From positions 4,093-68,092 of the IMG/VR virus record IMGVR_UViG_3300017689_000002: a stretch of DNA of 64,000 nt. The stretch is one strand, 5' to 3'. Positions 1,330 to 46,570 of the stretch are shown here, piece after piece. The notes beneath the pieces are model-generated. The model searched no databases. It saw only the letters and a list, made by a program, of their open reading frames with translations, and was not told the origin of the DNA. A program made the translations under genes and the position numbers. Each line of letters opens with the position of its first letter. The first letter of the stretch is position 1. Origin of the DNA: a virus. Taxonomy: Duplodnaviria; Caudoviricetes.

Positions 1330-1544
1330 CAGTTTGCTCCCTTACTGTCGAAGACCAGGCCACAGACACAACGGTGCTTATCGGTGTGATCCTCTACCGA
1401 GCGGCAGTGGTGTTTGGCCTGAATGCCATTTGGTTTCGTGTGCAAACACGTAGCTTTACACTTATATTCAAGCTTGGGTACGGGTTCAACCGGCCCGACG
1501 TTGTACTTGACATCTTTCAGATACTTACTTGCAACTTCGGGCAC
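1329..1544 (-). CDS. Small Cys/His-rich hypothetical protein
   Basis: 71 aa with CxxxC, HxC, HxCxCG. Confidence 0.55.
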   Translation of the reverse strand: MPEVASKYLKDVKYNVGPVEPVPKLEYKCKATCLHTKPNGIQAKHHCRSVEDHTDKHRCVCGLVFDSKGAN

Positions 1545-1555
1545 GGTTGAAACTC

Positions 1556-1807
1556 CTATTGGTTCGGCTTGATGTGTTCGGCGATTTTCATAGGCTGGAA
1601 GCCGGCCCAGTAGACCTCGTCGCCAGGCTTACCCTGAGAGACAACGATCACCGGAGCGGCTCCCAGACCCAGGGACTGAACTGCTGCGAGGTTATCAGGA
1701 TCGAGAATATCTTCGGTCTCGTACTTGATACCCTTAGCGTTAAACGCCTTCTTGGTCATGTCGCACTGCATACAATTGGGCTTGGTGTAGATGATTACAG
1801 ACTGCAT
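1556..1807 (-). CDS. nrdH: NrdH-like glutaredoxin
   Basis: YTKPNCMQCDMTK CxxC motif, APVI, WAGFQP. Confidence 0.9.
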   Translation of the reverse strand: MQSVIIYTKPNCMQCDMTKKAFNAKGIKYETEDILDPDNLAAVQSLGLGAAPVIVVSQGKPGDEVYWAGFQPMKIAEHIKPNQ

Positions 1808-1919
1808 ATTTACTTTCTATCTCTATCTTCTGGGTAGTTGTCAAGATCCCAGCTACTGTTAAGGACCTTACCGATATTCTCAGCAACTTCCTTCAACCAG
1901 AATCCGGTTTCTTCCATAT

Positions 1920-2816
1920 TTAGATCTTGTCCCAGATGGGCCCGTCGACGTTGAAGTCGAGTCGGATGTGACCCTCGGTGCCGTCGATGAACGCGCCCTT
2001 CTTGATGTTGTTGAAGTCGTAGAGCCCGAAGTCGATGAAGTCGTCACCGTTGTCAGCGTTGAAGATCCAGCCAACAACCGAGCCGGCAGACGTGTCAGCG
2101 AAGCCCAGCGCGTCGTACACATCGTTCAGGAACACGTGACCCCGTGCCTTAAGACGGTCGTTCATGTAAGCCTGGATGCTCTTGAGGAAGGCAATGTTGT
2201 AGCCCTCGTTCTCGTTCCAGTTGACGTTCTCACGAGTGAACATCACCGAGTAGTCGGTCTTACGGTCAAGGTCGGGATCGAAGACCATGGCGACCTCCTT
2301 CTTACCGTCCTCGCCCTTCTGGTCAACCGCACGCAGGCCCATCTTGAACTGCTTGTCCTTGTCCTCGCCATATTCCTCGACGACGCGCTCACGGTACTTC
2401 GCGAAGCTGCTGTCGACCGCCTTGTAGGCCGCGAGCAGACCGACGTTGCGCTTCTTCAGGAGGCCGTGACCGCCGAGGACCGATGCGGTACCCAGCAGGA
2501 CCAGTCCACCCGAGGGGGCGTAGAGCTTGACGATGCCGTAGGATCCCTTGATGTAGGCCTTGGTCAGGTCTCGCTTCTTGTTGCGCTGGTCCGACTCCTC
2601 GACGTAGTAGTGGTCGTGAACCGCACGGACGCCGTCCTCGAGATCCGTAACCTTCTGCTCGAGCTGGAGGGTTGCACGGCTAGCCAGGACCGCACCCGTC
2701 AAGACAGCGCCCAGACCCGCGACCGTCAGGATCTCCGGGCTGTACTTCTGACCCAGGAGGATCGTACGTGCCGTCTTGTTGGTGACGACGTTCTTGATGT
2801 TGCTGATGGCGCTCAT
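1920..2816 (-). CDS. Conserved phage protein (DUF6353-like), paralog of 8298-9056
   Basis: Hydrophobic N-terminus (PEILTVAG), KLYAP, LAAY..YRERV, FLNDVY..LG, VGW pattern. Confidence 0.7.
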   Translation of the reverse strand: MSAISNIKNVVTNKTARTILLGQKYSPEILTVAGLGAVLTGAVLASRATLQLEQKVTDLEDGVRAVHDHYYVEESDQRNKKRDLTKAYIKGSYGIVKLYAPSGGLVLLGTASVLGGHGLLKKRNVGLLAAYKAVDSSFAKYRERVVEEYGEDKDKQFKMGLRAVDQKGEDGKKEVAMVFDPDLDRKTDYSVMFTRENVNWNENEGYNIAFLKSIQAYMNDRLKARGHVFLNDVYDALGFADTSAGSVVGWIFNADNGDDFIDFGLYDFNNIKKGAFIDGTEGHIRLDFNVDGPIWDKI

Positions 2817-3001
2817 TTTTTCTCCTTGGTGATTTCTTCTAGATTGTCAAGAGCCTGTGCAAGTACAGGCCATTCTTTGCGCAGCTTTCGCTGCATACCT
2901 CGGTGGTAGTCTGGAACCCTGCCAGGGTCTGTCCAGGCTTTGAATATCTTGATTAGAGCCCCGGTCAGTGGATCAATGGGCTCCGGGTTCGGAATATCCA
3001 C
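2813..3001 (-). CDS. Small hypothetical protein
   Basis: 62-aa ORF in operon context. Confidence 0.55.
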   Translation of the reverse strand: MDIPNPEPIDPLTGALIKIFKAWTDPGRVPDYHRGMQRKLRKEWPVLAQALDNLEEITKEKK

Positions 3002-3127
3002 TACTTCAACTTTCCCTGGCTTCTCATGCGCTCGTAGATAGCCGCAACCTGGTAGTAGGGCTTACTGTCGATATTCTTGTGTCCGGACTTGTAGAGAGCC
3101 TTGCGCATCTGTTCGATCGTCATTTTT

Positions 3128-3412
3128 CTACCCTTCTACCTTTTCGATTTTCTCGGACTGGACCCAGCACTCGATAGACCAGAGACGCAGATCGATATCC
3201 ACATCTTTAAGCCAACCGTCACCCCGAAGAGACACAGTAGCTCGATTGCGACCGAAGTCACGCTCATATCCTTCGAGGATCCCAACACGTACCCTCATCT
3301 TGTCTGGAAGAAGCGTGTCGGAGTCTTTTGAAGAGCGGGGGATGATCTGGATCTTTACGATCCTCCCAAGATACTTGGGATTAAATCCTGGCATTTGATA
3401 ATCCGACATCAT
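3128..3412 (-). CDS. Hypothetical protein
   Basis: 94-aa ORF with SD AGGAG. Confidence 0.6.
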   Translation of the reverse strand: MMSDYQMPGFNPKYLGRIVKIQIIPRSSKDSDTLLPDKMRVRVGILEGYERDFGRNRATVSLRGDGWLKDVDIDLRLWSIECWVQSEKIEKVEG

Positions 3413-3418
3413 ATTCTC

Positions 3419-4093
3419 CTACTGAGTAATTTCTTCCGTGGGCGGAAGCTCAATGATATAGCCCTGACGGACGTTACGGACACCGGCGTCGATGAGGTTG
3501 AACCAACCCCACTTGTCATCAGCCCAGCTGCCAGAAATACCAGCGCTAGCGTAGAAGTCCGACACCGAGACCACATCGTAACGGTCCACGAAGTCACGCA
3601 TACGGTCCAGGACTACTTCAGCGTCACCCCGAGTGGGGAAGACAATCTCTTTGAAGTCGTGAGTCGCTCGACCTCGCTGAGAAATAGTCCGCGGCGCAGC
3701 CTCCTGAGGACGCATACCACCATTCACAGGCCGGTTATACGCCGTCTGCTGACGTGCAGCTCCGACCGGACCACCCTGACGAGTAGAGCGAACGCCACGA
3801 ACCTCACCGTACAACATACGCTCGATACCCTGGCTGACCACGTCAGTGATCGTAGCCTTGACTGCCGGCATGATCACATCGAACATGATGAACTGACCAA
3901 CACTGTGAGCGTCGTCACCAGCAAAGGTATCCACGATACGACGACCGAAGGGGCGCTTACGTTCGATAGCAGTGCCCGAAACGATCTTGGTCACCGGCTC
4001 CTTCTCAGGAGCTTTTGCCAGGTTGCTAGGCTCTTCTGTGCTACCCTGAGGCTTCTTCTTGCTGTTGCTCGAGTAGTTGTTAGGATCCGCCAT
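3419..4093 (-). CDS. Conserved phage hypothetical protein
   Basis: 224 aa, SD AAGGAAG, C-terminal VSVSDFY..DDKWGW..L..A.VR..R.GY.I.LP pattern. Confidence 0.7.
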   Translation of the reverse strand: MADPNNYSSNSKKKPQGSTEEPSNLAKAPEKEPVTKIVSGTAIERKRPFGRRIVDTFAGDDAHSVGQFIMFDVIMPAVKATITDVVSQGIERMLYGEVRGVRSTRQGGPVGAARQQTAYNRPVNGGMRPQEAAPRTISQRGRATHDFKEIVFPTRGDAEVVLDRMRDFVDRYDVVSVSDFYASAGISGSWADDKWGWFNLIDAGVRNVRQGYIIELPPTEEITQ

Positions 4094-4492
4094 TTTTCTT
4101 CTCTTCCTTCTGCAGCTTAGCTAGTTCTTGGAGCCAATAGTTGACTTCGTCTTGTCTATCGAGACCTCTGGCGGCCCGTAGCTCCATGCGTACCTGGTGG
4201 AGAGTATATATGCGCTCACCCATGCTTACGACGGATTCGCTCAAGTTCACTCTTGTAGAAATTCACCAGTTCGGGTCGACCTCGCTCTGCTGCACTCTCG
4301 ATCAAGTCGTGAAGTTGCTCTTCCGTGTAATCGATACTAGTCATGATATCCCTTAGCGACGGTTGCGGCTGCGTCCGATGGCGGAGATGACGACCACGAT
4401 GAGCCACAGACCTCCGGTGATGAGCGTCAAAGCCACATCCAAGAGAAGGTGGGCTCCGGTGTAGGGCTTCTGGTTGTAGGTGTAGGTAGCCA

Positions 4493-4978
4493 TTAGTTTT
4501 CTTCTTTCTTGTCAGTGTTGATGATGTTGCGCTCAGCTGCATAGCGAGCATCTGCGAGGGTGGGGTAGAAACCGTCTTCGTCCAGAACCTCAGACTCTTC
4601 GCGGTTTTCAGCGACTACGACACGACCATCGGGGTGGAAATATGCAGTCGGCTCGAACGGAAGACCGTCCAGGACTTCTTCCTTGATTGCTTCGGTGTCA
4701 ACGTGAACGTCAACGACCTTACGCTCGGCGAGGTTCTTCTGGATCCGAAGACCGGCAGAAATACCCTCGTTGACCTTGTCGATCTGACCCTCGAGGTAGT
4801 CGACAGATGCGCTCGATGCCATACCAGCCAGCGCGAAACCACCTACCGCGATGAGAATCTTCTTGCTGCGCTTGAGGTCCTCGGGCGTAGTAGCCTTGAC
4901 CGCGTTCTTGACGATCATACCCACGCCTGTCGAGACCAACATACCCGTTGCTGTCTTGATAATATCTGTGTTCATCAT
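4493..4978 (-). CDS. Hypothetical protein with two N-terminal hydrophobic segments
   Basis: Start moved to MMNTDII after SD AAGGAG; directly downstream of the promoter motif at 5024. Confidence 0.65.
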   Translation of the reverse strand: MMNTDIIKTATGMLVSTGVGMIVKNAVKATTPEDLKRSKKILIAVGGFALAGMASSASVDYLEGQIDKVNEGISAGLRIQKNLAERKVVDVHVDTEAIKEEVLDGLPFEPTAYFHPDGRVVVAENREESEVLDEDGFYPTLADARYAAERNIINTDKKEEN

Positions 4979-5098
4979 TTTCTCCTTGTTAAGTAGCCAA
5001 AAATGAAAGGCCATGTAAGGTCCTTCATACTAGTGCGTGTAATTCTTGCGAGGGGCGCCTGCTATATTTTCAACAGACGCCCCGCAAAGCAAGATATG

Positions 5099-5701
5099 TT
5101 ACTGGGCGTTCTTCTGTGCAGCCTTCCAAGCCTGGAAGTCCTCGAACGTGGGGGCGTCATCGAGAGGGGTTTCAGTCGGCGTGGGCTGTGCGTCCAACTG
5201 AGGAGCTGCCGTGGGGATCTGCACGGGCTCGTTGACCGTCTGGGGCTCAGGTGCCTGGGGCTTCTTGTATCCCTGCATCTGGGCCTCCGAGCGCTCACGG
5301 GCAGAGAGCGACTGCTGGATCTTTGCCGCCTGCTCATCCATACCCTTGGGCGCGATGCCGTTCACGAACACAGCAGCAGCGTCGGCGTCCGTAGCAAGCT
5401 CCATGAACAGCTTGGAATATGCCTCGGTCGAGGTGAAGCGCTCGAGAATATCTTCGGTCTTGTGGAAAGAACGACCGTCAAGAGACTTCTCACCGTAGGC
5501 CGCAGCGATGATGTCCTTGAACGCCTGGATGATCTTGGCGCCGTCCATCTCCGCGGCGATCTTCTGGATCTGCTGCTGGAAGTTGTTACCCTCTGCGCTG
5601 AGCTGGATCGAGAGGGCCTCGGCCTGCGTGAGGTTGAAGTAGAAGTCCTCAGTGCGCTCGTTGTTGTTGAAGTCGGTGTACGTGATGGTCTTCTTGAACA
5701 T
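5099..5701 (-). CDS. Putative tail assembly chaperone-like protein, located outside the tail operon
   Basis: MFKKTITYTDFNNNERTEDFYFNLTQAE...AYGEKS.DG..F.K...F..TEAYSKLFMELATDADAAA.FVNGI; recalled from siphovirus genes that follow the tail tube gene. Confidence 0.5.
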   Translation of the reverse strand: MFKKTITYTDFNNNERTEDFYFNLTQAEALSIQLSAEGNNFQQQIQKIAAEMDGAKIIQAFKDIIAAAYGEKSLDGRSFHKTEDILERFTSTEAYSKLFMELATDADAAAVFVNGIAPKGMDEQAAKIQQSLSARERSEAQMQGYKKPQAPEPQTVNEPVQIPTAAPQLDAQPTPTETPLDDAPTFEDFQAWKAAQKNAQ

Positions 5702-12392: not shown

Positions 12393-12423
12393 TTTATCTC
12401 CTTAGTTGAGGTTATTACTTCTA

Positions 12424-12546
12424 CTATAGGGCTTGTAATTCTTGCGAGGCTGAGCTCTCTTCGCAGGTTCGAATCGGGGCGTGATTTACACCACAATCCG
12501 GGCACTTGACAACGATAAAAGCGGCGGGAATTTTCAGATCATACAT
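12424..12546 (-). CDS. 40-aa Zn-finger-like peptide (not in ORF track)
   Basis: SD AAGGAG; MYDLKIPAAFIVVKCPDCGVNHAPIRTCEESSASQELQAL. Confidence 0.5.
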   Translation of the reverse strand: MYDLKIPAAFIVVKCPDCGVNHAPIRTCEESSASQELQAL

Positions 12547-12607
12547 GATGTATCTCCTTAGTAAGAAAACTAAAAGACCGTGTGAGGGTCTAGTAGTTTT
12601 GTTGGTA

Positions 12608-12808
12608 TTAGTCTTGGTTGAGGGTGCTGGCGAGGAACTTCTCGGCGAGGCCTTCGCTCACGATGAACTCGTCACGCTGGTTGAGGAGGGCTCCGTAGAC
12701 GACGCTGGAAATCACAGTGGAAACTGTAACGCCGGCGACGTACGCGAAACCGACCTTGTGGGCGGCGACGAAGTTAACGGGGGCTTTGGCGATCTTCTTG
12801 ATGTCCAT
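12608..12808 (-). CDS. Small single-TM protein of the promoter-cassette array
   Basis: True start MDIKKIAK after SD AAGGAG; the 229-aa track ORF is a read-through artefact. Confidence 0.65.
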   Translation of the reverse strand: MDIKKIAKAPVNFVAAHKVGFAYVAGVTVSTVISSVVYGALLNQRDEFIVSEGLAEKFLASTLNQD

Positions 12809-12864
12809 GATGTGCTCCTTAGTTAGGGTTAATACTTCTATTAAGAGGCTTGTAATTCTTGCGA

Positions 12865-12962
12865 GACACAAAGAAAACAAGAAGGATTGCGAATGATAAT
12901 TGGCAATGTTGACTAGCTTGTTACGGCTATGGGCTTCTTGTTTTAATGGGAAGATTAGATCT
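12865..12962 (-). ncRNA. Candidate structured ncRNA A
   Basis: No ORF or SD; directly after promoter motif 12965-12992; perfect 11-bp closing stem 12874-12884/12934-12944 with two inner hairpins. Confidence 0.45.
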
Positions 12963-13032
12963 TCTTCATTACAGTGTGAGTAAATCCTGCGAGCAAAACT
13001 TAAAGTCCTTGTGGGGACTCTAAGCCTTGAAC

Positions 13033-13239
13033 TTACTTCTCTTCCTGGATGGTGGTGTTCTTCTTGGCAGCACGCTTGGTGCGACGGTCCGAATACTTCT
13101 CGTAGGCGATTCCGATCAGCATCATACCGCCGAACGCTCCGGCCGTGGAAACGACGGAGAGCGCGAGGGTCTTTGCGATCTGAACGCCAAACGAGTCTTC
13201 GGTGGCGTCGATGTCGTTGGTGATGTCTTCGATGTCCAT
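13033..13239 (-). CDS. Small single-TM protein of the promoter-cassette array
   Basis: SD AAGGAG; promoter motif at 13266. Confidence 0.65.
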   Translation of the reverse strand: MDIEDITNDIDATEDSFGVQIAKTLALSVVSTAGAFGGMMLIGIAYEKYSDRRTKRAAKKNTTIQEEK

Positions 13240-13330
13240 GATTTCTCCTTGGGTTAGTTGGGGGGTTCATTATAGGCCTTGTAAATCCTGCGAGCAAAAA
13301 TTTAAAGGAGAGTAAACTTCGCGGTTACTT

Positions 13331-13428
13331 GCATTCAGATAGTGGGGTTTGCACCTAATGATCTAGTCATCACGACCTAGCATTTGTCAAGCAAATGTGT
13401 GGGGTCTCTTAAGGGTATCTGAATACTC
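13331..13428 (-). ncRNA. Candidate structured ncRNA B (multi-branch)
   Basis: No ORF or SD; directly after promoter motif 13432-13459; 11-bp closing stem 13416-13426/13331-13341 enclosing three hairpins, one with a GCAA tetraloop. Confidence 0.55.
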
Positions 13429-13500
13429 TTCTTCATTATAGGCCTTGTAAATTCTGCGAGCAAAAGAGAAAGTCCGTGTTAGGGACCTCTCTTTTGTTCC

Positions 13501-13746
13501 TTAGAAATTAAGGGTGATGTCTTTGAATTTGATGTCGGTGAATACTCGATCCGAGTGCTTCTTCAGCACGTCGATGGGCATGTCTTCGAGAGCACCCAGG
13601 TAAGCTTTCGACATGTAATCGAAGCTGGCCTCCTTGTTGCGGATGCGGGCTTTGAGTTTGTCGATGTAGATTGACTGGGCACAAGCGACGATGATGCTTG
13701 TGGCGGCTGAACCAGCGAGGATGAGGATACGGGTTTTGTCGTCCAT
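13501..13746 (-). CDS. Small protein with N-terminal TM, promoter-cassette array
   Basis: Start MDDKTRI after SD AAGGAG; promoter at 13771. Confidence 0.65.
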   Translation of the reverse strand: MDDKTRILILAGSAATSIIVACAQSIYIDKLKARIRNKEASFDYMSKAYLGALEDMPIDVLKKHSDRVFTDIKFKDITLNF

Positions 13747-13831
13747 GATTATCTCCTTGGTTTGGTGGGGTTCATTATAAGCCTTGTAAATCTTGCGAAC
13801 AAAAGAGAAAGGCCTTGTGGGCCTCACTCCT

Positions 13832-14086
13832 TTAAACTGTTACAGAACTGAGTAGTTCCATGTCTTCGGCGGTCAGAGTTACTTCCTCCGTTTTCGTGTT
13901 GACAATGGCGTAAAGGCGTTCGATCTTGCAGGTATAATATTGACCGGGCTTTATGGGCAACTCGGGATCATCGAAATGTCCGAGCCATTTGTAGCCACGA
14001 TCTCTTAGTCCTTGCAGGATCTGGCTCGCTTTGTGTACGCCACCGTCTGAGAGTTCGGGGAAGGAAAGCTGAATTCGTTGATTCAT
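13832..14086 (-). CDS. Small soluble hypothetical protein, promoter-cassette array
   Basis: SD GAAAGG; promoter at 14107. Confidence 0.65.
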   Translation of the reverse strand: MNQRIQLSFPELSDGGVHKASQILQGLRDRGYKWLGHFDDPELPIKPGQYYTCKIERLYAIVNTKTEEVTLTAEDMELLSSVTV

Positions 14087-14211
14087 GGTTTACCTTTCTT
14101 TTGGGGTTCATTATAAGCGCTGTAATTTGTGCGAACAATTTTTTAAAGCGTTGTAAAACTAAAAGCCTTTGTGGGGCTGTTAGTTTTTGTGGAACTTGTA
14201 CTGGGGTTTTA

Positions 14212-14340
14212 TTACTTCATGATCTTGTTGCAGATGGCCTGGTTGGCGTCGTTGATCATCACGGGCACGGATTTGACTGCCGTGGAGGCGATGAAGACGG
14301 CGACCATGGGGACAGCTTTGACAGTGTTGATGATGTTCAT
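14212..14340 (-). CDS. 42-aa hydrophobic peptide (not in ORF track)
   Basis: SD AAGGAG; MNIINTVKAVPMVAVFIASTAVKSVPVMINDANQAICNKIMK; promoter at 14367. Confidence 0.55.
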   Translation of the reverse strand: MNIINTVKAVPMVAVFIASTAVKSVPVMINDANQAICNKIMK

Positions 14341-14432
14341 TGTGTTCTCCTTAGTAGTGGGTTTCTTCTATTATAAGCCTTGTGATTTCTGCGAAGAAAG
14401 AAGGAGTACGTGTTAGGTACTCGATCTTTTGA

Positions 14433-14639
14433 CTACGCCTTGTGAGGGTCCAAAGTCATGTACATGGTGAAACCTTTGCGGTGGACGTTGTAGTCGTAGG
14501 AACCGGGTTCGACGGTGTGGTTGATACCACCAACCGATTTGAGCAACTTTGCGAGTGCTTTCTGGCGGATGGAGGTACCGTACATGTCGTAACGGTCTTC
14601 GGTGACTACAACGAGCAGGGGCTTGGTCTTCTTGAACAT
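14433..14639 (-). CDS. Small hypothetical protein, promoter-cassette array
   Basis: Start MFKKTKP after SD GAAAGGA; promoter at 14662. Confidence 0.6.
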   Translation of the reverse strand: MFKKTKPLLVVVTEDRYDMYGTSIRQKALAKLLKSVGGINHTVEPGSYDYNVHRKGFTMYMTLDPHKA

Positions 14640-14794
14640 GGGTGTTCCTTTCGTTGTGGGGGTCATTATATAGTGTGTAATTCTTGCGAACAATTTTTTA
14701 AAGCGTTGTAAAATAGGAGTACCTGTGATTTCGCTTTGTGGGCGGGTCACAGGTACTCCTATTTTGATTACGTCTTTGTTGGTTGTTGCGTGGG

Positions 14795-15085
14795 CTACTT
14801 GCCTTTGCCGACGAAACTCAGTGCTTTGGTCACAATCACTTCACCGCTCTTCTCGAACACGAGGATTGCCGCGATTCCGATGAGGTTGCTTGCTGGCTGG
14901 AGCAGATCGACCATCCCCACTCGACGCTTCTCCTGGGTAGGAGGGAGCATCTTGTGGAGGCGTTCGATCTGCTCGAGGTGCAGAACATAGTCTTCGGAAC
15001 CGACGACGAATCCGCGGAGCTCTTCGATGAGTTCGGCGATTGCGGTCTTAAGTTGGGTCTCGTGTGCGTTGGTTTTAGTAAACAT
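14795..15085 (-). CDS. Small protein with C-terminal hydrophobic segment, first gene of the array
   Basis: SD GAAAGGAG; promoter at 15109. Confidence 0.65.
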   Translation of the reverse strand: MFTKTNAHETQLKTAIAELIEELRGFVVGSEDYVLHLEQIERLHKMLPPTQEKRRVGMVDLLQPASNLIGIAAILVFEKSGEVIVTKALSFVGKGK

Positions 15086-15127
15086 ACGGGTCTCCTTTCA
15101 AGAGGGTTCTCATTATAGCCCGTGTGA

Positions 15128-15493
15128 TTACTGCGAGGCTCCCGTATTGGTCACCTTGAACACCATAGTACCCTTGTCCTTGACCGACTCCAGATCGTTC
15201 TCCAGAACCAGCTTCAAAGAGTCGCCATCCTCGGAGGGAGTGACGAGAACTTCGCCGTCAATACCCTTTTCGGACCTCTTGTAGTTACTCTTGCTCACCT
15301 TGACCGTAACACCCAGGAATACGGAGACGGCCGCGATAATACCAACGACCTCTTCCGCGTAGGGAAGCCCTACGATCTGTGAAATGGTGAAGTACAGCGT
15401 GCCCAAAGCCGGCAGGTAGACCAATGCGGCATTGCGGAACGCGTCGTAGGTCACAGGGCCCAGGGTAGGACTAGTCTTGCTGTGGTCGGACAT
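15128..15493 (-). CDS. Holin (Dp-1-type) at end of tail operon
   Basis: Start MSDHSK after SD GGAGG; two TMs, VYLPALGTLYFTISQIVGLPYAEEVVGIIAAVSVFLG..KVSKSNY. Confidence 0.7.
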   Translation of the reverse strand: MSDHSKTSPTLGPVTYDAFRNAALVYLPALGTLYFTISQIVGLPYAEEVVGIIAAVSVFLGVTVKVSKSNYKRSEKGIDGEVLVTPSEDGDSLKLVLENDLESVKDKGTMVFKVTNTGASQ

Positions 15494-32229: not shown

Positions 32230-32817
32230 CTAGCGACCCGTTGCGGCAGTAAGAGCTCCAGCGACACCGAAGAGAACAGCTGATGCAACCAGAGCCTGAG
32301 TAGCTTCCTTAGTGGTAGAAGACGTGGCCGTGTCCCAGGTGTCGCTGTACTTGTCAGAGGCGGCCCGCAGAGCGCGCTTTGCAGCCACCTTACCCTGAGT
32401 CTGCTTGTCAATCTTGTACTGCTGGCGAGCCTTCTGGTACGCCTCAGCGTCCTTCGGGAGACGGTTACGTGCGTCTTCGATGTTCTTGTTGTAGGCATCG
32501 CGGTCGGACTTACGCGCCTCTTTGTTTTTTGCACGAAGATCAGCCTTATTGGCGGCCTTCGTGTTCTTGATAGCCCCACCAGCGGCACGTCGGTTAGCCC
32601 CCAGATTCGAGCCCCCACCACTGTCAGAGCGCGCGGAACGCTTGCCCCACTTCATGCCCTTCACACCAAAGTGCTCAAGGAAATCATCAACTGCCACATC
32701 ATTAGCCATTTCGGCTCCTTCGTTAGTTTGGCTATGAGCCGCTTCGGTTTCTTCCACGTCCATAGAAATGATCTGGCCGTTAGAATCGTATTCTACTTTA
32801 AATTTGAAATCAGCCAT
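32230..32817 (-). CDS. HxGVKGMKWG-motif protein 1 (possible internal start at 32709)
   Basis: FLEHFGVKGMKWGKR; basic helical C-terminus. Confidence 0.75.
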   Translation of the reverse strand: MADFKFKVEYDSNGQIISMDVEETEAAHSQTNEGAEMANDVAVDDFLEHFGVKGMKWGKRSARSDSGGGSNLGANRRAAGGAIKNTKAANKADLRAKNKEARKSDRDAYNKNIEDARNRLPKDAEAYQKARQQYKIDKQTQGKVAAKRALRAASDKYSDTWDTATSSTTKEATQALVASAVLFGVAGALTAATGR

Positions 32818-33278
32818 TAGAGATCCCTAATCGTCCAGTCAGGCATTCCGTCAGTTTCGACATTGTAGTCGAGCGCAACAACCTTTTTCTTGCCCGAGGG
32901 ACTAACGCCCATCTCAGCAGCTGCCTCATTCCAACTATCAGTAGCGAGTTTAGAATACCCTTTGTAATACTTGGTTGCAATGGCTTTGTTTTTTGGAGCG
33001 TTAAGATCTTTACCCTTAAACTCGGGCTGGTCGTTATAGGCCCCGAGTTTTGCGTTGATCTTTCGGGCGCCACTGTTGAAAATGGCATAAGGATAACCGC
33101 TAGTCATCTTCTTTTCCCATTTAGCGTCAGCTTTAGCAAGCTTCTTTTCGGCTCTTGAGGGTTTAGTAGAGCCTCCAGAACCGCTAGAACCTCCAGAGTC
33201 GCCACCACTGTCAGAGCGCGCGGAACGCTTGCCCCACTTCATGCCCTTGACACCGAAGTGCTCAAGGAAATCATCAAC
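32615..33278. repeat. 77-bp direct repeat (32615-32691 and 33202-33278)
   Basis: 75/77 identical; both differences synonymous; encodes VDDFLEHFGVKGMKWGKRSARSDSGG. Confidence 0.9.
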
Positions 33279-33290
33279 ACTATCAGTCAT
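32817..33290 (-). CDS. HxGVKGMKWG-motif protein 2
   Basis: Start MTDSVDDFLEHFGVKGMKWGKR. Confidence 0.75.
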   Translation of the reverse strand: MTDSVDDFLEHFGVKGMKWGKRSARSDSGGDSGGSSGSGGSTKPSRAEKKLAKADAKWEKKMTSGYPYAIFNSGARKINAKLGAYNDQPEFKGKDLNAPKNKAIATKYYKGYSKLATDSWNEAAAEMGVSPSGKKKVVALDYNVETDGMPDWTIRDL

Positions 33291-33291
33291 G

Positions 33292-33813
33292 TCAACCCCA
33301 AAGGTTTCTAATGTTAGCGGTTCTCGGATCGTTAGCAATGTCTTTGATGGTGCGCTTACCATATTCTAGGAGTGCTTTATCAACACCCGCATTGTGAGCG
33401 GCACCAGCAGCACCAAGAAGAACAATACTTGCGGCCGAAGCGTTACGCATATTACCTTTAAGAACGTTGACAACACCCCTAGTAGTTTTCTGGGCACCCT
33501 TTACGGTATCAGTACGCTTGCGTTTACCTCGAGCTTCTGAAGCTCGCTTAGCCATATCCTGACCATTCAGCTGTCGTTCAAACGACTCTTTGTAAGCAGC
33601 ATCTTTAGACTTAGACTGAACAGTGCCATTGATGAGGCGACGTCTGACTCCTGCGCCCTCACCATAGTACATTTTAGCGCGAGCAAACTCTTTAGCGTCT
33701 TTACCGGCGTCTCTCTCGGTTCTACGCGAAGTACCAGCCGGACGCGAGGATGTCTTTCCCCATCGCATACCTTTAACGCCATAGTGAGCTAGAAACTCAT
33801 CTACTTCACTCAC
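33292..33813 (-). CDS. HxGVKGMKWG-motif protein 3
   Basis: MSEVDEFLAHYGVKGMRWGK. Confidence 0.75.
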   Translation of the reverse strand: MSEVDEFLAHYGVKGMRWGKTSSRPAGTSRRTERDAGKDAKEFARAKMYYGEGAGVRRRLINGTVQSKSKDAAYKESFERQLNGQDMAKRASEARGKRKRTDTVKGAQKTTRGVVNVLKGNMRNASAASIVLLGAAGAAHNAGVDKALLEYGKRTIKDIANDPRTANIRNLWG

Positions 33814-35573: not shown

Positions 35574-35963
35574 CTACTTCTTAATCGCTCCAAGAACTGC
35601 GTTGAACGATGCCTCTACGGCAAGTTTGGCACCCTGCTTGGCGTATTCGCTAGCAAGTTGCTTACCCGTCTTGCCTAGAACGTCTTCAGCAATTTTTTGC
35701 CCGCGATACTTAGTATTGGGGCTGAGCTTAGAATATTGCTGCTCTAGGTTCATTCGAGTAATAGCAGTCTGAAGCTCGGAGTTACTAAGAGCATCTGTAC
35801 CACTACGCTTAGCTTTGAACTTCAAATCTTTTGCAGTCGACGCATCAGGGTGTGTGGGATCCCTCGACAAAGAAATCTGTTTGGTAGAACTAGATTTCCT
35901 CTTGCCCCACTTCATGCCCTTAACACCGTAGTGCGCGAGATAGTTTTCTGTTTCTTGACTCAT
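35574..35963 (-). CDS. HxGVKGMKWG-motif protein 4
   Basis: YLAHYGVKGMKWGKR; LSNSEL..AITRMNLEQQY. Confidence 0.75.
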   Translation of the reverse strand: MSQETENYLAHYGVKGMKWGKRKSSSTKQISLSRDPTHPDASTAKDLKFKAKRSGTDALSNSELQTAITRMNLEQQYSKLSPNTKYRGQKIAEDVLGKTGKQLASEYAKQGAKLAVEASFNAVLGAIKK

Positions 35964-35978
35964 GTTACTCCTCTCTCG

Positions 35979-37553
35979 TTAATATACGGTGGACACGTCA
36001 ATGACGCCGGATACTTGCAAGGCTTTGGCACCATAACCAACAGCGGTCTGAGCTGCTACTGCAGTAGGAACAATATGTCCGAGTACCTTCTTAGTATCAG
36101 CAATACTCATCATAGTTGCCCATGTACTAGATGAAGCGGTGTACTCGAGTCCCAGGAAGTCCCAATAGCTAGCGTATTTAGCTGCATCCCCATTGTTCAC
36201 GTCAGCAGTGTAGAAATATCCCCAAACCAAGCAACCAATTGCATGGAATTCATTCGCAATTGCAATACCGGTACCATAGAACTTTCCCATGATACGGTTC
36301 TTGTAATCGGGAATGGTCTTGATGTAGTTATAAAGATCTACTCGACCAGCTGTAGAAATATACTTCGGGTCTAGCATGAGAGTGTGCGTACCCGACCACC
36401 GATTGACCAGATCGGTTAGTCGGTAGTATTTAGCAGTGTTGAATCTAGAATCTCCACGACTGGGAAGGTCTTGAATAAGCGCTTCAATCTCAGCATCTGT
36501 ATGATCGCTAAAGAACCAGTCAGTACCGCCGTTTGCCGCAGATGGACCAACAGAAGAACTTGTTCGGTTTGCTGTATTGTCATGGGCGCCCCAGAAGGTA
36601 CCGTCTTTAGAACGGACCAGAGACATCTCCATGACATCGACGTGACAGATAGCGGATTCAAGATACCCACGCTCGCTGTGTTCCTGGTAATCCTTTGACC
36701 CGCCTCGGTGCGCCATGGTCCAAACACGAGTCATACTAACGAGATCTGGAACTAGAGATCCAGGATATACAGCAGTGACCTTAGCCAGCTGAATTTCCTG
36801 CGAACCATCCCACCAAGAAACCTTGCCGTCAATAATGTTACCTTGACCGTCGCTGATCTTCAAAGCAAGTCGAGTAGGAGTAGCATCGACTGCCGGCGGA
36901 ATAACCAGCATGAAGGATCCACGGTTACCCGTTTGGTTAGGCCAACCTCGAGATACGGCGTCTCCAGTAGAACCATCAGCAGTGAGTTTACGGTGCGCAA
37001 TAAGGAACGAGTTGATGGGGTTAGACCCAGCAATGATTGTCCAATATAGCTTAGTAAAGGGAGAGTCGACGGTCATTACGTCAGACTCGGTAGCCGCTGT
37101 GGCTTCTGCCTGGATGGATATGGCAAGGGATCCGGCAACTGCTCCGGACACCCCAGGTGTGGTCTGTGTCGTAAGGTTAGCGCCCTTAGAAAAGGCTCCC
37201 TTCAACCACGTTGAAATATCAGTTACACCACCGCTACCCCACTGAACATCAGCAAAAGCCGCGCCAGTTTTGGCTTGAGTAAAGGTCCAGGTGTTAGGAT
37301 CTCCATCTACTCGTCGCTTGGCAAATACCGATAGGATACGAGAGCCAAGAAGTGACGGAGCCAACACCTGGACCCAACCCGAATTGCTGGGTGCCGTGAT
37401 GGCATGGGCTTCCGAATTTGAAGCAGTTGTATGGATTGAGGCAACCATCCAGTCACCAACAGCAGGACCATCGGAACTAGGGACATTTACCGGAATCGGA
37501 GTTGTGCCCGAGTTGGTGGTTGTGAGGTGATTTTTGTATAGTGCCTCAGCCAT
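35979..37553 (-). CDS. Virion-associated glycerophosphodiester phosphodiesterase (beta-rich N-domain plus GDPD)
   Basis: MAHRGG...EHS...EMSLVRSKDG...HD GDPD signature; structural region. Confidence 0.8.
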   Translation of the reverse strand: MAEALYKNHLTTTNSGTTPIPVNVPSSDGPAVGDWMVASIHTTASNSEAHAITAPSNSGWVQVLAPSLLGSRILSVFAKRRVDGDPNTWTFTQAKTGAAFADVQWGSGGVTDISTWLKGAFSKGANLTTQTTPGVSGAVAGSLAISIQAEATAATESDVMTVDSPFTKLYWTIIAGSNPINSFLIAHRKLTADGSTGDAVSRGWPNQTGNRGSFMLVIPPAVDATPTRLALKISDGQGNIIDGKVSWWDGSQEIQLAKVTAVYPGSLVPDLVSMTRVWTMAHRGGSKDYQEHSERGYLESAICHVDVMEMSLVRSKDGTFWGAHDNTANRTSSSVGPSAANGGTDWFFSDHTDAEIEALIQDLPSRGDSRFNTAKYYRLTDLVNRWSGTHTLMLDPKYISTAGRVDLYNYIKTIPDYKNRIMGKFYGTGIAIANEFHAIGCLVWGYFYTADVNNGDAAKYASYWDFLGLEYTASSSTWATMMSIADTKKVLGHIVPTAVAAQTAVGYGAKALQVSGVIDVSTVY

Positions 37554-42083: not shown

Positions 42084-42209
42084 CTGTTCTCCCCTTTCAA
42101 TAGGGTTTGGTAGGCTTTGCCGGTAGTTCTAGACCACTTTGTACCTACCGCCCAGAGGGGTAAAAAGTGGATTGTTTGCCCAAAAAATCCCTCCGGGGCT
42201 ATTTTTGGG

Positions 42210-42218
42210 AGGCAGGCG
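42210..42218 (-). other. Candidate cos overhang CGCCTGCCT (genome terminus)
   Basis: In the only GC-island intergenic gap between last and first genes; resembles CGCCNNCCT overhangs recalled for related phages; HNH next to terS supports cos packaging. Confidence 0.5.
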
Positions 42219-42277
42219 ATGCGGGAGGGGGGCCGGATTCAATAGACCCCCCTCCCCTACTAAATATTTTTTGAGAT

Positions 42278-42520
42278 TTATGAATTTGGAGCAGCAACTT
42301 TTCGGTAGATGCCCAAAACATTTTCTTTTACTATCTCATCGATCGCATACTCGAGTGCAAGTGATTGATCAACTTCACTTAGTTCATCGCTTGACTTAGT
42401 GATCCGAGCAAGCAGACCACTAGTACAGTAGCCGGCTTGCTCATCATACTGATACCATTCATCCCAATGTGTGAAAGGATTGAAAGGATTGTCTGTAGTA
42501 GTTAGCATGTGTTCGTTCAT
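42278..42520 (-). CDS. Conserved acidic hypothetical protein after the polymerase
   Basis: MLTTTDNPFNPF..WDEW..YD...GY.T.GLLARI. Confidence 0.7.
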   Translation of the reverse strand: MNEHMLTTTDNPFNPFTHWDEWYQYDEQAGYCTSGLLARITKSSDELSEVDQSLALEYAIDEIVKENVLGIYRKVAAPNS

Positions 42521-42536: not shown

Positions 42537-45239
42537 CTATTCACTAAGAGCATCATTGAGTGTTGATGTAGGCACACCAAGGGCATCAGAGATCTCTGCC
42601 TGGGTGTAGCCAGAAGCCAGCATCTGCTTAGCTCTTGTAACCTTAGCAGGCACCATGACTGTAGCAAGACGGGGAGTAGCCAACTGCTTGACTAGATCCA
42701 CATCAGTGTTAGCAAGGATTGCTTCTAGCTTGTTGTTAGTAATAGCACCTGCTTGAATGGCCTTCCATTCGTTAGGTGTGATGTCCACAGGTTCCTTCTT
42801 AGCACCCACTCTAAGACGTGCTTCAGTAAGTGCTTGACCCTTGATCTTCTTAAGGTCAGCTGCATCCATGTTGGGGTCAGCCTGGCGCTTAGCGGAGATG
42901 GTGGCATTAGCAAGTAGCTGGGCCTGTCGTTCCTGGGGCTTGTTCCTGAAGGCCAGGGCCAGTTTACTATTGAGGGAGGCTACCTCAGCAGCATAGGTCT
43001 GCTTAGCTGTAGGTGAGTAGGGTGTGGACTTGGTACTGATGTAGGCCTTACGAGAGTCGTTAGCTAGGGCCTTGAGCTTGTTAGCGTGGTCAGCATAGAC
43101 AAACTCCATAGGTGTACCAACACCCTTGATCAGACTGCGTGCATCATCTACCTCAGCCATACGAGTAGACTTGGTAGACTTCTGTACCACCTTGCCTGTA
43201 GTGGCCGATACATACGATGCACCTGTACGCTCATACATCTTGCGTCCAGTACGGGGGTCAATACGACCACCATTAGCAGCAGACCTATCCTTACGCTCAT
43301 CCACACGGACAGCCGAAGAGGCCTGTGAAATAAGCGTACTAGCACCTGACCTAGAGGTACCTTGATAGTCCTTCTTGAGCTGGGCTATATTATTATCAAT
43401 AGCCGACTGCTTCCAGTTGAGGTTGTGCTTCTCAGCATCAATAACAACCATCGAGTGCTTGACAGCTCGAGCGATCTCAGAGTGAGGTGCACCCTTGACA
43501 GTCATATCCGTAATGAGGTTAGAGACGTCGCCCATTTTCAACTGCTTGGTGCGAGGACTCATTTTCTTCATGCCAGGGTAGGCAGGATATGCAGCTTGCG
43601 GATCGAAGCCCTTAAGAGCAGCCAAGGGAGCAGCACTCTTAATTTGCTTGTTGTTATTTGGGATGACCAGAACAGTGTCACCATCGAAGTCAGCACCAGA
43701 AAGTCGACCAGCGACCTTGGAGTTGATACCGACAGCATCCTGTGCATTTCCCATAACCTTCTTGGCAGCGGCAACACGGTTATTTACCGTCAGTTCAGGG
43801 ATCTCAAAGATACCACCATGAGGATATCGAACAAGCGCAACACGCTCACCATCACGGAACTGAGGTGCGTAGATCTCAGTGTCCTTCATTGCGTTGATGG
43901 GCAAAATAACCTGAGTCTTCTGACGAGGCAGAGCTGCTGCTTTCAAGTGAACAGCGGAAGAATCCAGATCATCAGAAAATGAATCGAGAAGCTTGCGTCG
44001 AACAGCCGGGTTAGTCAGAGACATAATCTCGTCGTACTCGGCTTTCTTGATTGCATATTTGAGCTCGAGCTGCTGCTTAGCCAAAGCGGGAGACTGCTTG
44101 GACAGGACCTGAGAAGAGATATTCTTAGACCACTTGTCCCAGTCACCTTCCTCGTTGACGATATTCATCGAGGAGAGTTGCGTCTTGCCCTTGCTGTCAA
44201 CATAGTGTCGTTGGCTGACGATGGATCCGAAGGGGTTATCTCCGTCTTCCTTCATCGGCTTCATAGCCTTGAGCTTGTCGCCCTTGTCACTCTTATTCGT
44301 GTTGAAGCGGAGGTCAACGCCATCAGGCAGATCATCCGTGTACATTGCCATACCCTTGAGGTAGTGCGTACCATCAACGGCAACACGAACTTGAGCATAC
44401 TGCTTAGTGCCCAAGGAAATATCATCCACGCCACGACGGACCTGAATAACACCGTCCATGTCAGCGCCACCGTCTTCGGCATATCTCACTTCAATGCGCT
44501 TCGAAGACACATTGCGGGGAGTTTCAAGCCCAAGAGCGGTGTGACCACGATCCTCAGAATATGTCTGAATGGAACGGATCTTGTCCTTGTTGTCAACCAG
44601 TTCTTTGAAGGTTGCGTCCGGCGGAGCGAGAACCTTCAGACGAGTATATTCGCCGGTACCGACCTGCTGGACCTTCAGGTACATGACCTGATATCCTTCT
44701 TCTTCCAGCATAGCCACTGCCGTGTTCATCTTGGTAGCACTAACACCACCGAGACGATCACCGTACTGAGTACCAGTACCAATATCAAGGAAGCGCTTCT
44801 CGCCAACCTCATCCTTCAACACATTGGCTGTGTCAATAAGGTTGTCGGCCTTTGCCTGAGTCGTAGGATCTAGAAGGGCACGAACATTAGATTCGTTAAC
44901 GCCCATCTGTGCACCGATGGCGACATTAGACATGCCTTTTTCTTTGAGCTTACGTGCAGTGTTGATCTGTGACTGCTTCTGCTCATTTTTAGCGATAGCC
45001 TTAGCAGCACGAAGTTGGGTCGTAGAAATACCCATACCTTCGGCGATCTTCTGCTCGCTGAGACCTTTAGCCTGAAGACCGGCCACATAGTCCAGGAACT
45101 GCTTGTTACGCTGGTTGGGGTTTTCGCCCGAGCCCCAAGGATATCTTCCACTCTTGTGAAGGATTCCAATGTGCTGCAGAGCACCCTCAAAGTCATCGTC
45201 TACTTCAACGCTGTAGATATCTTCACTCATTAGCAGCAT
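42537..45239 (-). CDS. Single-subunit two-barrel RNA polymerase-like protein with terminal HTH domains (start may be 45230)
   Basis: Catalytic GADFDGD at 43677-43691, VALVRYP, YAQVR...YLKG; two N-terminal and one C-terminal HTH. Confidence 0.8.
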   Translation of the reverse strand: MLLMSEDIYSVEVDDDFEGALQHIGILHKSGRYPWGSGENPNQRNKQFLDYVAGLQAKGLSEQKIAEGMGISTTQLRAAKAIAKNEQKQSQINTARKLKEKGMSNVAIGAQMGVNESNVRALLDPTTQAKADNLIDTANVLKDEVGEKRFLDIGTGTQYGDRLGGVSATKMNTAVAMLEEEGYQVMYLKVQQVGTGEYTRLKVLAPPDATFKELVDNKDKIRSIQTYSEDRGHTALGLETPRNVSSKRIEVRYAEDGGADMDGVIQVRRGVDDISLGTKQYAQVRVAVDGTHYLKGMAMYTDDLPDGVDLRFNTNKSDKGDKLKAMKPMKEDGDNPFGSIVSQRHYVDSKGKTQLSSMNIVNEEGDWDKWSKNISSQVLSKQSPALAKQQLELKYAIKKAEYDEIMSLTNPAVRRKLLDSFSDDLDSSAVHLKAAALPRQKTQVILPINAMKDTEIYAPQFRDGERVALVRYPHGGIFEIPELTVNNRVAAAKKVMGNAQDAVGINSKVAGRLSGADFDGDTVLVIPNNNKQIKSAAPLAALKGFDPQAAYPAYPGMKKMSPRTKQLKMGDVSNLITDMTVKGAPHSEIARAVKHSMVVIDAEKHNLNWKQSAIDNNIAQLKKDYQGTSRSGASTLISQASSAVRVDERKDRSAANGGRIDPRTGRKMYERTGASYVSATTGKVVQKSTKSTRMAEVDDARSLIKGVGTPMEFVYADHANKLKALANDSRKAYISTKSTPYSPTAKQTYAAEVASLNSKLALAFRNKPQERQAQLLANATISAKRQADPNMDAADLKKIKGQALTEARLRVGAKKEPVDITPNEWKAIQAGAITNNKLEAILANTDVDLVKQLATPRLATVMVPAKVTRAKQMLASGYTQAEISDALGVPTSTLNDALSE

Positions 45240-45261: not shown

Positions 45262-45840
45262 TCACGCGAAAGCTTCAGCACGCATACGGTCGATGATCGC
45301 ATCGGCGCTTAGCAGTCGCTCACGGATGGGGATAATATCATCCAGTTGCGGTTCGAAGATTCGGACTTCATCATTCTGGTAAATACGGAGCTCAACATCA
45401 ATAGTCATGATGTCAACCTTGTATTCAATGCAGAAGAACACAACGTAAATAAGAAGCTGATCAAACGAGGCCTCGTGGACACCCGTCTTGAGGTCGGCGA
45501 TGATGAGCTTGTATCGGTTCTGTCCAGGGATCTTACGGTAACCAATAGCATCAGCTGTACCGAAGGCATTTGCCGACGCAACCAACATGACCTCAGGTGA
45601 AAGGCGAAGACCAATGCAGTCGTTCACATATTGGTTGAGTGTGGCGGTCGTGTCAGGAAGCTTGACCTTCATCTCAATGAGGTGCTTAGCGAGCTCGTGG
45701 AGCTGCGTGCCCTTCATGGCGTCGAGACGAGTCATGTACGTGTCGACGATCTTGTCGTCGTTGTACCTGATCCAGTGATATTTGCTGGCACTAAGTGTAG
45801 CGTGCCGACCCTCGATGTCGGCGTGGTTCTTCCAGAACAT
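45262..45840 (-). CDS. PD-(D/E)XK / Cas4-like exonuclease
   Basis: GTQLHELA, EV, GTADAI, DLKTG, QLLIY. Confidence 0.75.
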   Translation of the reverse strand: MFWKNHADIEGRHATLSASKYHWIRYNDDKIVDTYMTRLDAMKGTQLHELAKHLIEMKVKLPDTTATLNQYVNDCIGLRLSPEVMLVASANAFGTADAIGYRKIPGQNRYKLIIADLKTGVHEASFDQLLIYVVFFCIEYKVDIMTIDVELRIYQNDEVRIFEPQLDDIIPIRERLLSADAIIDRMRAEAFA

Positions 45841-45903: not shown

Positions 45904-46197
45904 CTATCGACCGTCGAAGAACTCTTTCAAGAACGTCAACACATCTTTCTTGTTCTCAGGATATACCGTTGTAGCAAACGATAGAGCTGCCAGCTTGTCC
46001 AGATACCATTCCTGGTTTGGCTGATATGGCGCCCGAGCAGATCGCTTACATTCCAGGACCGCCCAGCGCTCATGCCAGAGAACTGTGAGGTCGGGGAAGC
46101 CTTGTCGATATCCTGAGTCGTTCTTGAGGATGACACAGCCGGGGAAGAGGAACTCAATATCCTTGATTAGTTCAGCTTGGAACTGACTCTCTAGCAT
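45904..46197 (-). CDS. VRR-NUC-type nuclease (resolvase-like)
   Basis: ESQFQ, QGFPDL, LECK, PNQ. Confidence 0.8.
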   Translation of the reverse strand: MLESQFQAELIKDIEFLFPGCVILKNDSGYRQGFPDLTVLWHERWAVLECKRSARAPYQPNQEWYLDKLAALSFATTVYPENKKDVLTFLKEFFDGR

Positions 46198-46253
46198 TGT
46201 CACCACCTCAAGCAAAAATATAAGTCGTTGTAGAGCAGAGGTATTCTACTCCT

Positions 46254-46570
46254 TCTATTACAATATGCGTAATTCGTGCGTGGACATCAAAAGGCGGAGA
46301 ATTTTTTTAAATCGATGTAAATCTTGCGAACGGCCTCGTGGCCAAAAACCCACTTATTTTACCAACTTCTATTCAACTTTTTGTAATAGACATATACCTC
46401 TATTATTTTTTCGCGTATAGAAGTTATAGATAAAAGTGGGTTTTTGGCCACAAAACGCGTCCACAAACGTCCAAAACAGCCCTTTTTGCGTCCACAAACG
46501 TCAATTTTCGACATTTGGGATTTTCCGATGTCCACGCACGAATTACAACGCTCGAACTTGTTTGTGGACA
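46254..46570. other. Candidate replication origin with nested inverted repeats and iterons
   Basis: Perfect 20-bp IR 46269-46288/46527-46546, perfect 18-bp IR 46338-46355/46434-46451, AT-rich core, 15-bp direct repeat at 46457 and 46488. Confidence 0.55.

Follow-up and report, generated by a model that had tools for sequence, protein, structure and literature searches.

A predicted single-chain two-barrel RNA polymerase with built-in helix-turn-helix domains and its candidate promoter in a siphovirus genome

Can a large phage gene, of a kind mostly recorded as a helix-turn-helix (HTH) DNA-binding protein, encode an RNA polymerase (RNAP) that selects promoters by itself? The question is raised by one gene of the IMG/VR virus record IMGVR_UViG_3300017689_000002, a 68,092-bp record rated 100% complete, of which bases 4093-68092 (64,000 nucleotides, G+C of 50.7%; here, the window) were analyzed, and whose positions are given below as window positions. 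A preliminary description, made from the letters of the DNA, had proposed that this gene encodes a single-polypeptide two-barrel RNA polymerase with built-in HTH domains, and the predicted structure and the fold searches agree with this proposal. On these predictions, the product is very probably a catalytically competent two-barrel RNA polymerase. Here it is further proposed, with a probability of roughly 0.6, that it would be a DNA-dependent, sigma-independent enzyme, whose HTH modules read a 14-bp box and which transcribes an array of small gene cassettes as well as its own operon. The gene and its predicted parts are as follows.

42537-45239, minus strand: gene for the predicted HTH-flanked single-chain two-barrel RNA polymerase (open reading frame (ORF); PHROG 4291, E=0; AlphaFold2 model with a predicted local distance difference test (pLDDT) of 87.5; fold matches)
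44796-45113, minus strand: N-terminal helical module with two HTH units, residues 43-148 (GerE, HTH_7, PHROG 3855 and DeoR matches)
44145-44522, minus strand: predicted first (beta-like) double-psi barrel, residues ~240-365 (invariant Q283, R285, K295 and G296; the model aligns from residue 240 to QDE-1 residue 681 onward)
43650-43940, minus strand: predicted second (beta-prime-like) double-psi barrel, residues 434-530 (R471/P473 and the DFDGD loop at 43677-43691; matches to domains of the double-psi beta-barrel (DPBB) type)
42540-42782, minus strand: C-terminal HTH module, residues 820-900 (HTH_23, Sigma70_r4_2 and Tc3 matches)

Catalytic motifs and family membership

The polymerase ORF has 900 aa from its first ATG on the minus strand; a plus-strand reading of the same interval was ruled out, as it contains many stops. 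A Shine-Dalgarno sequence, GGAGG, is separated by 2 nt from the first ATG and by 11 nt from a second ATG at 45230, and an 897-aa form of the polymerase is present in the public protein collection. Because of this spacing and of the 897-aa form, the start at 45230 is the likelier one, and the true protein probably has 897 aa. The three motifs quoted in the preliminary description for one 900-aa chain were all located in this ORF: YAQVRVAVDGTHYLKG at residues 281-296 (44352-44399), VALVRYP at residues 467-473, and GRLSGADFDGDTVLVIP, which contains DFDGD at residues 517-521 (43677-43691). Q283, R285, K295, G296, R471, P473, G515, A516, D517, D519, G520 and D521 do not vary in either of two alignments, of 149 and of 83 homologues (45-58% identity). 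This invariance, together with the end-to-end match to PHROG 4291, places the motifs beyond chance.

The match to PHROG 4291 ('RNA-dependent RNA polymerase'; E=0, 1312 bits) extends over residues 16-899 of the protein and positions 7-906 of the 909 of the profile. This full-length match, the HTHs at both ends and the place of the gene after a Cas4 gene, which adjoins the polymerase gene in 5/5 complete relatives, make the protein a member of the PHROG 4291 or actinophage-1706-oengus family. Homologues were found by tblastn in 250 phage records, including phages of Arthrobacter, Gordonia, Streptomyces, Lactococcus, Curtobacterium, Microbacterium, Rhodococcus and Faecalibacterium and human oral and gut siphoviruses, with identities of 38-60% to the cultured members. 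A word-indexed search returned at least 8000 homologues, and an exhaustive search 911 clusters at 50% identity (E < 1e-30); the closest sequence in the collection, among the matches listed, is at most 73% identical. It had been anticipated that such proteins are easily labelled only as HTH proteins, and most of the 250 phage records indeed read 'helix-turn-helix DNA-binding domain protein', while the JGI names are CsgD, XRE or biotin repressor. The label 'RNA-dependent RNA polymerase' is carried by PHROGs and some RefSeq records.

The family was previously described by Koert et al. 2021 (10.1101/842583) as 'HTH domain-containing protein / putative RNA polymerase' in the actinophage clusters AM, AU, AW, BI, CC, DJ and EL, in Lactococcus 1706-like phages and in Faecalibacterium phage FP_oengus. 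The same study reported HTHs at both ends, an HHpred match of 95.7% to the Pfam RNA-dependent RNA polymerase (RdRP) family, and the DxDGD and YonO/crAss motifs, and stated that the protein 'could potentially have RNA polymerase activity'. The idea of an HTH-flanked RdRP/YonO-like polymerase is therefore already published for this family, of which the gene studied here is a new member. It shares the N- and C-terminal HTHs and the DxDGD with the members described there and differs in the G+C of its genome (50.7%) and in its permuted record, with the gene in mid-contig.

The Pfam threshold of the RdRP family PF05183 was missed (14.6 bits against 23.8; E 0.014; residues 508-606 only). Given this sub-threshold score and the HHpred value of 95.7% for the family alignment (Koert et al. 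2021, 10.1101/842583), the relation to PF05183 is considered one of remote homology and not of membership. When the PDB was searched, either with the single sequence or with the 83-sequence profile, the results were HTH and repeat noise only, plus a match (E 1.7) of a phage beta-prime subunit at DFDGD. That only the HTH parts exceed database thresholds would also be expected of a DNA-binding regulator with a catalytically dead barrel core. The three DxDGD aspartates and the basic residues of the first barrel, invariant in 83-149 homologues at about 50% identity, make such a dead enzyme extremely improbable.

Some relatives carry additional features. The relatives P0018, P0033, P0041 and P0095 (~1045 aa) are about 150 aa longer and have the Pfam domain PF13563 (2'-5' RNA ligase / 2H phosphoesterase), fusions that hint at a link to RNA-end processing, and in P0227 (1789 aa) the polymerase forms the C-terminal 730 residues. 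Also, one in-frame TAG lies within the match in three IMG/VR homologues (G031:C1:340-2961, G022:C1:338-2956 and G005:C1:385-1065); a sequencing error, a split of the gene or recoding of the stop codon may account for this.

Predicted fold of the catalytic core

The AlphaFold2 model, built from the 83-sequence alignment, has a mean pLDDT of 87.5 and a predicted template modelling score (pTM) of 0.79, with disorder only at residues 1-41 and 227-236. Double-psi barrels, which the preliminary description had made the test of its proposal, are present in this model. Foldseek found 25 PDB matches at E <= 0.001, all of them to QDE-1, RDR2 or the P23-45/P74-26 RNAPs, with the best values for QDE-1 (5e-10), P23-45 gp64 (4e-7) and RDR2 (6e-7); the weaker matches (E 1e-3 to 4e-2) include P23-45 gp96 (1e-3), Pol IV and the large subunits of multisubunit RNAPs. 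VIA-align, a structure search independent of Foldseek, aligned model residues 240-737 to residues 681-1196 of the QDE-1 chain (Z 16.0, 374 residues), and also found ZmRDR2 (Z 15.2, 364 aa), P74-26 gp62 (Z 12.8, 347 aa) and, at Z of about 10, the largest subunits of multisubunit RNAPs, with all domains represented. The matches in BFVD comprise P23-45 gp64, uncultured-phage 'RdRPs', and crAss-like and giant-virus RNAP subunits.

From residue 240 on, the full model aligns together with the first barrels of QDE-1, RDR2 and gp62 (Z 12.8-16), and the second barrel (residues 439-530) matches isolated or designed DPBB domains with Z 9.6-9.8 and a root-mean-square deviation (rmsd) of 1.9-2.0. The second barrel carries the DxDGD loop, as is characteristic of the two-barrel superfamily.

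Comparison with known two-barrel polymerases

A fold comparison with YonO, QDE-1 and phi14:2 gp66 had been suggested for this protein. QDE-1 came out as the top match (Z 16.0), while gp66 was marginal and YonO was absent from the top 50 BFVD matches. The best structural matches, QDE-1 and RDR2 (PDB 7Y7P, 2J7N, 7W82, 7W84), align over 364-374 residues across both barrels and have the same barrel order and the same R-x-P ... DxDGD arrangement. However, the identity is only 11-12%, and the aligned range of 240-738 leaves the HTH regions out. Both are eukaryotic silencing enzymes acting on RNA or single-stranded DNA.

The likeness to these RNA interference polymerases, together with the weak Pfam RdRP match (E 0.014) and the HHpred value of 95.7% for the family (Koert et al. 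2021, 10.1101/842583), would suit an RNA-dependent RNA polymerase that copies phage or host transcripts, forming double-stranded or antisense RNA, or that amplifies small non-coding RNAs of the cassette region. Against this, three to four HTH modules of DNA type are fused to the core, and the 'RdRP' label is merely inherited from the name of the Pfam family. In addition, QDE-1 itself also uses DNA templates, as reported in PMC9508822, and the phage single-chain two-barrel enzymes of known activity transcribe DNA, as stated in the reports on YonO (PMC5467207) and on the P23-45 enzymes (PMC10770324). An RNA template is thus quite improbable, and the protein would be expected to synthesize RNA on DNA.

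Among phage enzymes, the closest in fold are P23-45 gp64 and P74-26 gp62 (PDB 8F72, 8F5M), which are single-chain two-barrel non-virion RNAPs (Z 12.8 over 347 aa). The P23-45 non-virion RNAP reads its own DNA motif, as described in Chaban et al. 2024 (PMC10770324). These proteins differ in having about 600 aa, in aligning only to the model core (236-720) and in belonging to a separate phage lineage; no sequence similarity to them was detectable in the PDB searches with the single sequence and the 83-sequence profile. YonO of SPbeta, reported to be a DNA-dependent enzyme (PMC5467207), is likewise a single polypeptide of about 840-900 aa, with R-x-P-H ... D-x-D-G-D in register in a non-significant BLAST segment only. 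The kinship with YonO suggested in the preliminary description did not hold by sequence, as there is no significant sequence relation (best BLASTP E 0.99; hhalign probability 0.9%), and membership in the YonO family was rejected on these two values. The crAss-like phi14:2 gp66 virion RNAP (PDB 6VR4) also has the two-barrel fold in one chain and is a precedent for a virion-delivered phage polymerase, but its matches are marginal (BFVD E 0.077; first barrel Z 3.0) and its solved chain has 2166 residues.

Helix-turn-helix modules

The two N-terminal HTHs and the one C-terminal HTH that had been noticed in the sequence are backed by Pfam, PHROG 3855 and model matches. At the N-terminus, Pfam GerE (residues 55-74) and HTH_7 (89-110) are both just under threshold, PHROG 3855 ('HTH DNA binding protein') matches residues 83-124 with an E of 4.7e-10, and model residues 82-131 align to the DNA-binding domain of DeoR (Z 6.7). 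At the C-terminus, Pfam HTH_23 at residues 871-897 scores 25.7 bits, above its cut-off, and Sigma70_r4_2 is close to its own (25.2 bits against a cut-off of 25.7), while model residues 857-900 align to the HTH of the Tc3 transposase (Z 7.0, rmsd 1.7). A three-helix unit seen in the model at residues 822-854 may be a second C-terminal HTH.

A conserved promoter-like motif

The promoter motif flagged in the preliminary description proved to be real, with 12 sites in the window. It has 27-30 nt and consists of TCGCAnGAATTACA, 5 nt, TATAAT, and then GAA or AGA, often with a C-run after it. A position weight matrix (PWM) found exactly 12 sites and one half copy, all on the coding strand, with scores of 29-48 against a shuffle maximum of 8.9, and no other site in the window scored above the shuffle range.

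12414-15138, minus strand: ten canonical sites (PWM scores 36.6-48.3; 5' ends at 12449, 12866, 12994, 13295, 13461, 13800, 14136, 14396, 14691 and 15138)
5018-5053, minus strand: eleventh canonical site (PWM score 41.1)
46248-46283, minus strand: variant site, ACGCACGAATTAC-N5-TGTAAT-AGAAGGAG (ACGCA...TGTAAT), ahead of the endonuclease-Cas4-polymerase operon (PWM score 29.5)

These include 11/12 sites that head small promoter-gene-terminator cassettes at 5-15 kb. The variant site is conserved in the same position in Streptomyces phage Scap1 and Curtobacterium phage Yotsuba. In Yotsuba (polymerase gp84, 60% identical; G+C of 59% over the stretch read), nine sites lie in the equivalent cassette region; Scap1 (polymerase gp55, 57% identical) has six, the variant among them, and Lactococcus phage P092 (polymerase gp75, 38% identical; G+C of 33%) has one diverged site. 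The motif was found neither in 50 kb of SPbeta nor in the structural arm of Yotsuba. In IMG/VR, the exact pattern, with 19 specified bases, occurs in at least 110 stretches, where about one would be expected by chance on a rough, uncomputed estimate. The polymerase is present in 28 of the 49 motif-positive records searched and in 12/12 of those that are at least 90% complete. The 21 records without it are all less than 85% complete and likewise miss the Cas4 gene (positive control 5/5); since this gene always adjoins the polymerase, they are taken as fragments that miss that genome end and not as counter-examples.

The best-conserved columns of the motif, by information content, fill what would be the spacer of a sigma-70 promoter and run past the -10 element, so that a plain host sigma-A promoter is a poor fit. 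Additionally, the box is maintained across hosts, in phages with a G+C from 33% to about 60%.

A T-rich tract lies directly 5' of many of the sites in the window. The gaps that separate the cassettes of Yotsuba (2300-5700 of the stretch) contain a short GC hairpin that has a CACAA-type loop, and a CTTTCCTTTTT-like tract that abuts the next promoter; this conserved cassette ending may be a polymerase-specific terminator.

Proposed mechanism of promoter recognition

Here it is proposed that the enzyme is a single chain in which two double-psi barrels would face each other, with the Mg-binding DFDGD loop in the second and the basic R285 and K295 in the first, and with two N-terminal and one or two C-terminal HTH units fused to this core. 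These HTH modules would recognize the conserved 14-bp box TCGCAnGAATTACA, 5 bp upstream of TATAAT, and the DNA would open at this AT-rich element. The polymerase would then transcribe the small promoter-gene-terminator cassettes at 5-15 kb and, via the variant site, its own operon.

Several points weigh against this mechanism. The nearest solved folds, QDE-1 and RDR2, are RNA-templated enzymes, and no biochemical or structural study of any member of the PHROG 4291 family was found in the literature searched. When the first barrel was folded alone (8 sequences, pLDDT 76.8), the scores were weak (best Z 4.9); its matches include RDR2 515-619, QDE-1 681-786, gp62 87-188, the N-domains of CDC48/VAT, designed DPBBs, expansins and cap domains of molybdoenzymes. 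Double-psi-barrel proteins make up most of the 50 best matches, and the result is consistent with such a barrel in the model but is not independent proof of it. Common descent confounds the joint occurrence of motif and gene, which is by itself no proof of a functional link. The motif also contains a perfect host-type -10 hexamer, TATAAT, so that host RNAP with a phage factor could read it. Furthermore, there are only 12 sites, with none in the structural and replication operons, and therefore either a second class of promoters exists or the polymerase is not the main transcriptase. Lastly, the polymerase gene itself lies behind a variant of the motif; to get round the resulting start-up problem, host RNAP would have to fire there too, or the enzyme would have to come with the virion.

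The last three of these points are also those expected if the protein is a real two-barrel RNAP that does not read the motif. Host RNAP with a phage factor would then fire the cassettes and the polymerase operon, and the phage enzyme would transcribe middle and late genes from other signals; the hexamer, the modules without a copy of the motif and the need for something else to transcribe the polymerase gene first would all be explained. Yet the conservation of the upstream box among phages with different hosts would need a reader that is itself conserved and encoded by the phage, and the polymerase is the sole HTH protein named among the conserved genes of the supercluster in Koert et al. 2021 (10.1101/842583). 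Also, a second conserved motif was not found, though no systematic search for one was made. This alternative is unlikely but keeps a substantial minority of the probability, and recognition of the box by the HTH modules of the polymerase is preferred.

Genome organization

The genome is of the siphovirus type, with nearly all genes on the minus strand. Genes for replication and nucleotide metabolism span 58.5-46.6 kb and include a helicase, several HNH endonucleases and thymidylate synthase. They are followed by the polymerase operon at 46.2-42.3 kb, which consists of an endonuclease, a Cas4 exonuclease, the polymerase and one small gene.

45904-46215, minus strand: endonuclease, first gene of the operon (PHROG 93; Yotsuba gene 82, annotated VRR-Nuc, is its counterpart by position only)
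45262-45840, minus strand: Cas4/RecB-family exonuclease, directly upstream of the polymerase (PHROG 3953, E 7e-62)
42278-42520, minus strand: small conserved gene 3' of the polymerase (PHROG 4303, E 2e-37; Yotsuba gene 85, Scap1 gp56)

From 42.1 to 16 kb there are the counterpart of the Yotsuba endolysin (equal in length and position) and then terminase, portal, a protease-capsid fusion, tail tube, tape measure and tail proteins, and the array of small genes occupies 15-5 kb. In cultured relatives the small gene after the polymerase is the final gene before the genome end; because their genome ends fall just after it, the record is regarded as a permutation of their map, which leaves the polymerase in mid-contig. 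The non-coding interval 42084-42277, which separates the polymerase operon's last gene from the endolysin, contains a G-run/C-run hairpin and, since the genome ends of the cultured relatives are there, is likely a cos or terminator region.

A further conserved non-coding region, 46254-46570, separates an HNH gene from the polymerase operon; the variant promoter is located in it, as are the half copy of the box and CGCACGAATTAC in inverted orientation. The equivalent gap in Yotsuba measures 356 bp and contains long inverted repeats. This region may be an origin or a control region.

The position of the gene at the close of the replication module, beside helicase, HNH and Cas4 genes, and that of the variant motif in non-coding DNA that is conserved and has long inverted repeats, here and in Yotsuba, would also agree with an enzyme for the initiation of replication, which makes a primer or an R-loop transcript at the origin-like region 46254-46570. 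However, 11/12 copies of the motif head protein-coding cassettes far from that region, and the phage has its own DNA polymerase/primase of 1282 aa (PHROG 4210, E=0; genome positions 116-3964, just outside the window), with primase PHROG matches at residues 119-436. As the phage encodes this enzyme, no second primase is needed; a role as replicative primase is unlikely, and a role in initiation at large is improbable.

Elsewhere in the genome, four HNH endonuclease genes are present in this one 68-kb phage (39397-39924, 46588-46962, 52446-52925 and 52900-53316), two of them adjacent. Also, a protein of 524 aa (35979-37553), encoded among the virion genes, matches a PHROG 'phosphodiesterase' and, weakly, GDPD, and the Yotsuba gene at the equivalent position is annotated as a minor tail protein.

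N-terminal peptide and possible delivery with the virion

The N-terminus of the polymerase, ahead of the HTH modules, is both disordered in the model and conserved.

45117-45200, minus strand: conserved, predicted-disordered N-terminal peptide, residues 14-41 (consensus LxHYGxxRxSGRYPWGSG; pLDDT <50 for residues 1-41)

Residues 14-41 are among the most conserved of the family, with H23, G25, S30-Y33 and G36-G38 conserved in at least 90% of members. A related pattern, LxH[FY]GVKGM[KR]WG, is present in four small head-module proteins on the minus strand (35574-35963, 33292-33813, 32817-33362 and 32230-32817), which flank the terminase and portal genes, and three such proteins occur at equivalent places in Yotsuba. 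All three of the motif proteins that were scanned with Pfam match DUF7211 (PF23847), and the fourth is known from the pattern search only. Pfam DUF7211 gave no match to the polymerase N-terminus at E up to 1. In hhalign, the family N-termini matched eight DUF7211 motifs with a probability of 90.8% (P 1.2e-6), over 16 columns only. When a hidden Markov model of the polymerase N-terminus was run against all ORFs of the window and the loci, DUF7211 proteins were among the top non-polymerase matches, with non-significant E values of 0.16-0.3. No literature was found on DUF7211 or the GMKWG motif, nor on virion proteomics of phages of clusters AM, AU and AW.

These matches suggest, tentatively, that the N-terminal peptide could be an expanded DUF7211 tag by which the polymerase is loaded in the capsid. 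Injected with the DNA, the enzyme would then start the infection free of host factors, reading the cross-host promoter by its own HTHs, a delivery and a timing that we infer with considerable doubt. Delivery with the virion would solve the start-up problem and would place the enzyme in one functional class with the virion-packaged RNAPs crAss gp66, P23-45 gp96 and N4 vRNAP. If true, these ordinary siphoviruses of Actinobacteria and Firmicutes would have a complete, portable, sigma-free two-barrel transcription system.

Significance for the polymerase family

All cellular genomes are transcribed by an enzyme whose simplest relatives are the single-chain two-barrel RNAPs. Among the enzymes compared here, those studied at the bench or solved are YonO, crAss gp66, P23-45 gp64 and gp96, and QDE-1. 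The PHROG 4291 family is far more abundant. At 50% identity it forms more than 900 clusters, and its members come from phages of Arthrobacter, Gordonia, Streptomyces, Lactococcus and Faecalibacterium and of the human mouth. It is also the only one, among the enzymes compared, with fused HTH modules and a candidate cognate promoter. The names 'HTH DNA-binding protein', 'CsgD family regulator' and 'RNA-dependent RNA polymerase' are probably wrong for thousands of database entries. If the promoter is read unaided, the family would offer a compact model of two-barrel promoter specificity without sigma, TFB or TFIIB, as well as a candidate orthogonal transcription tool for Gram-positive hosts.

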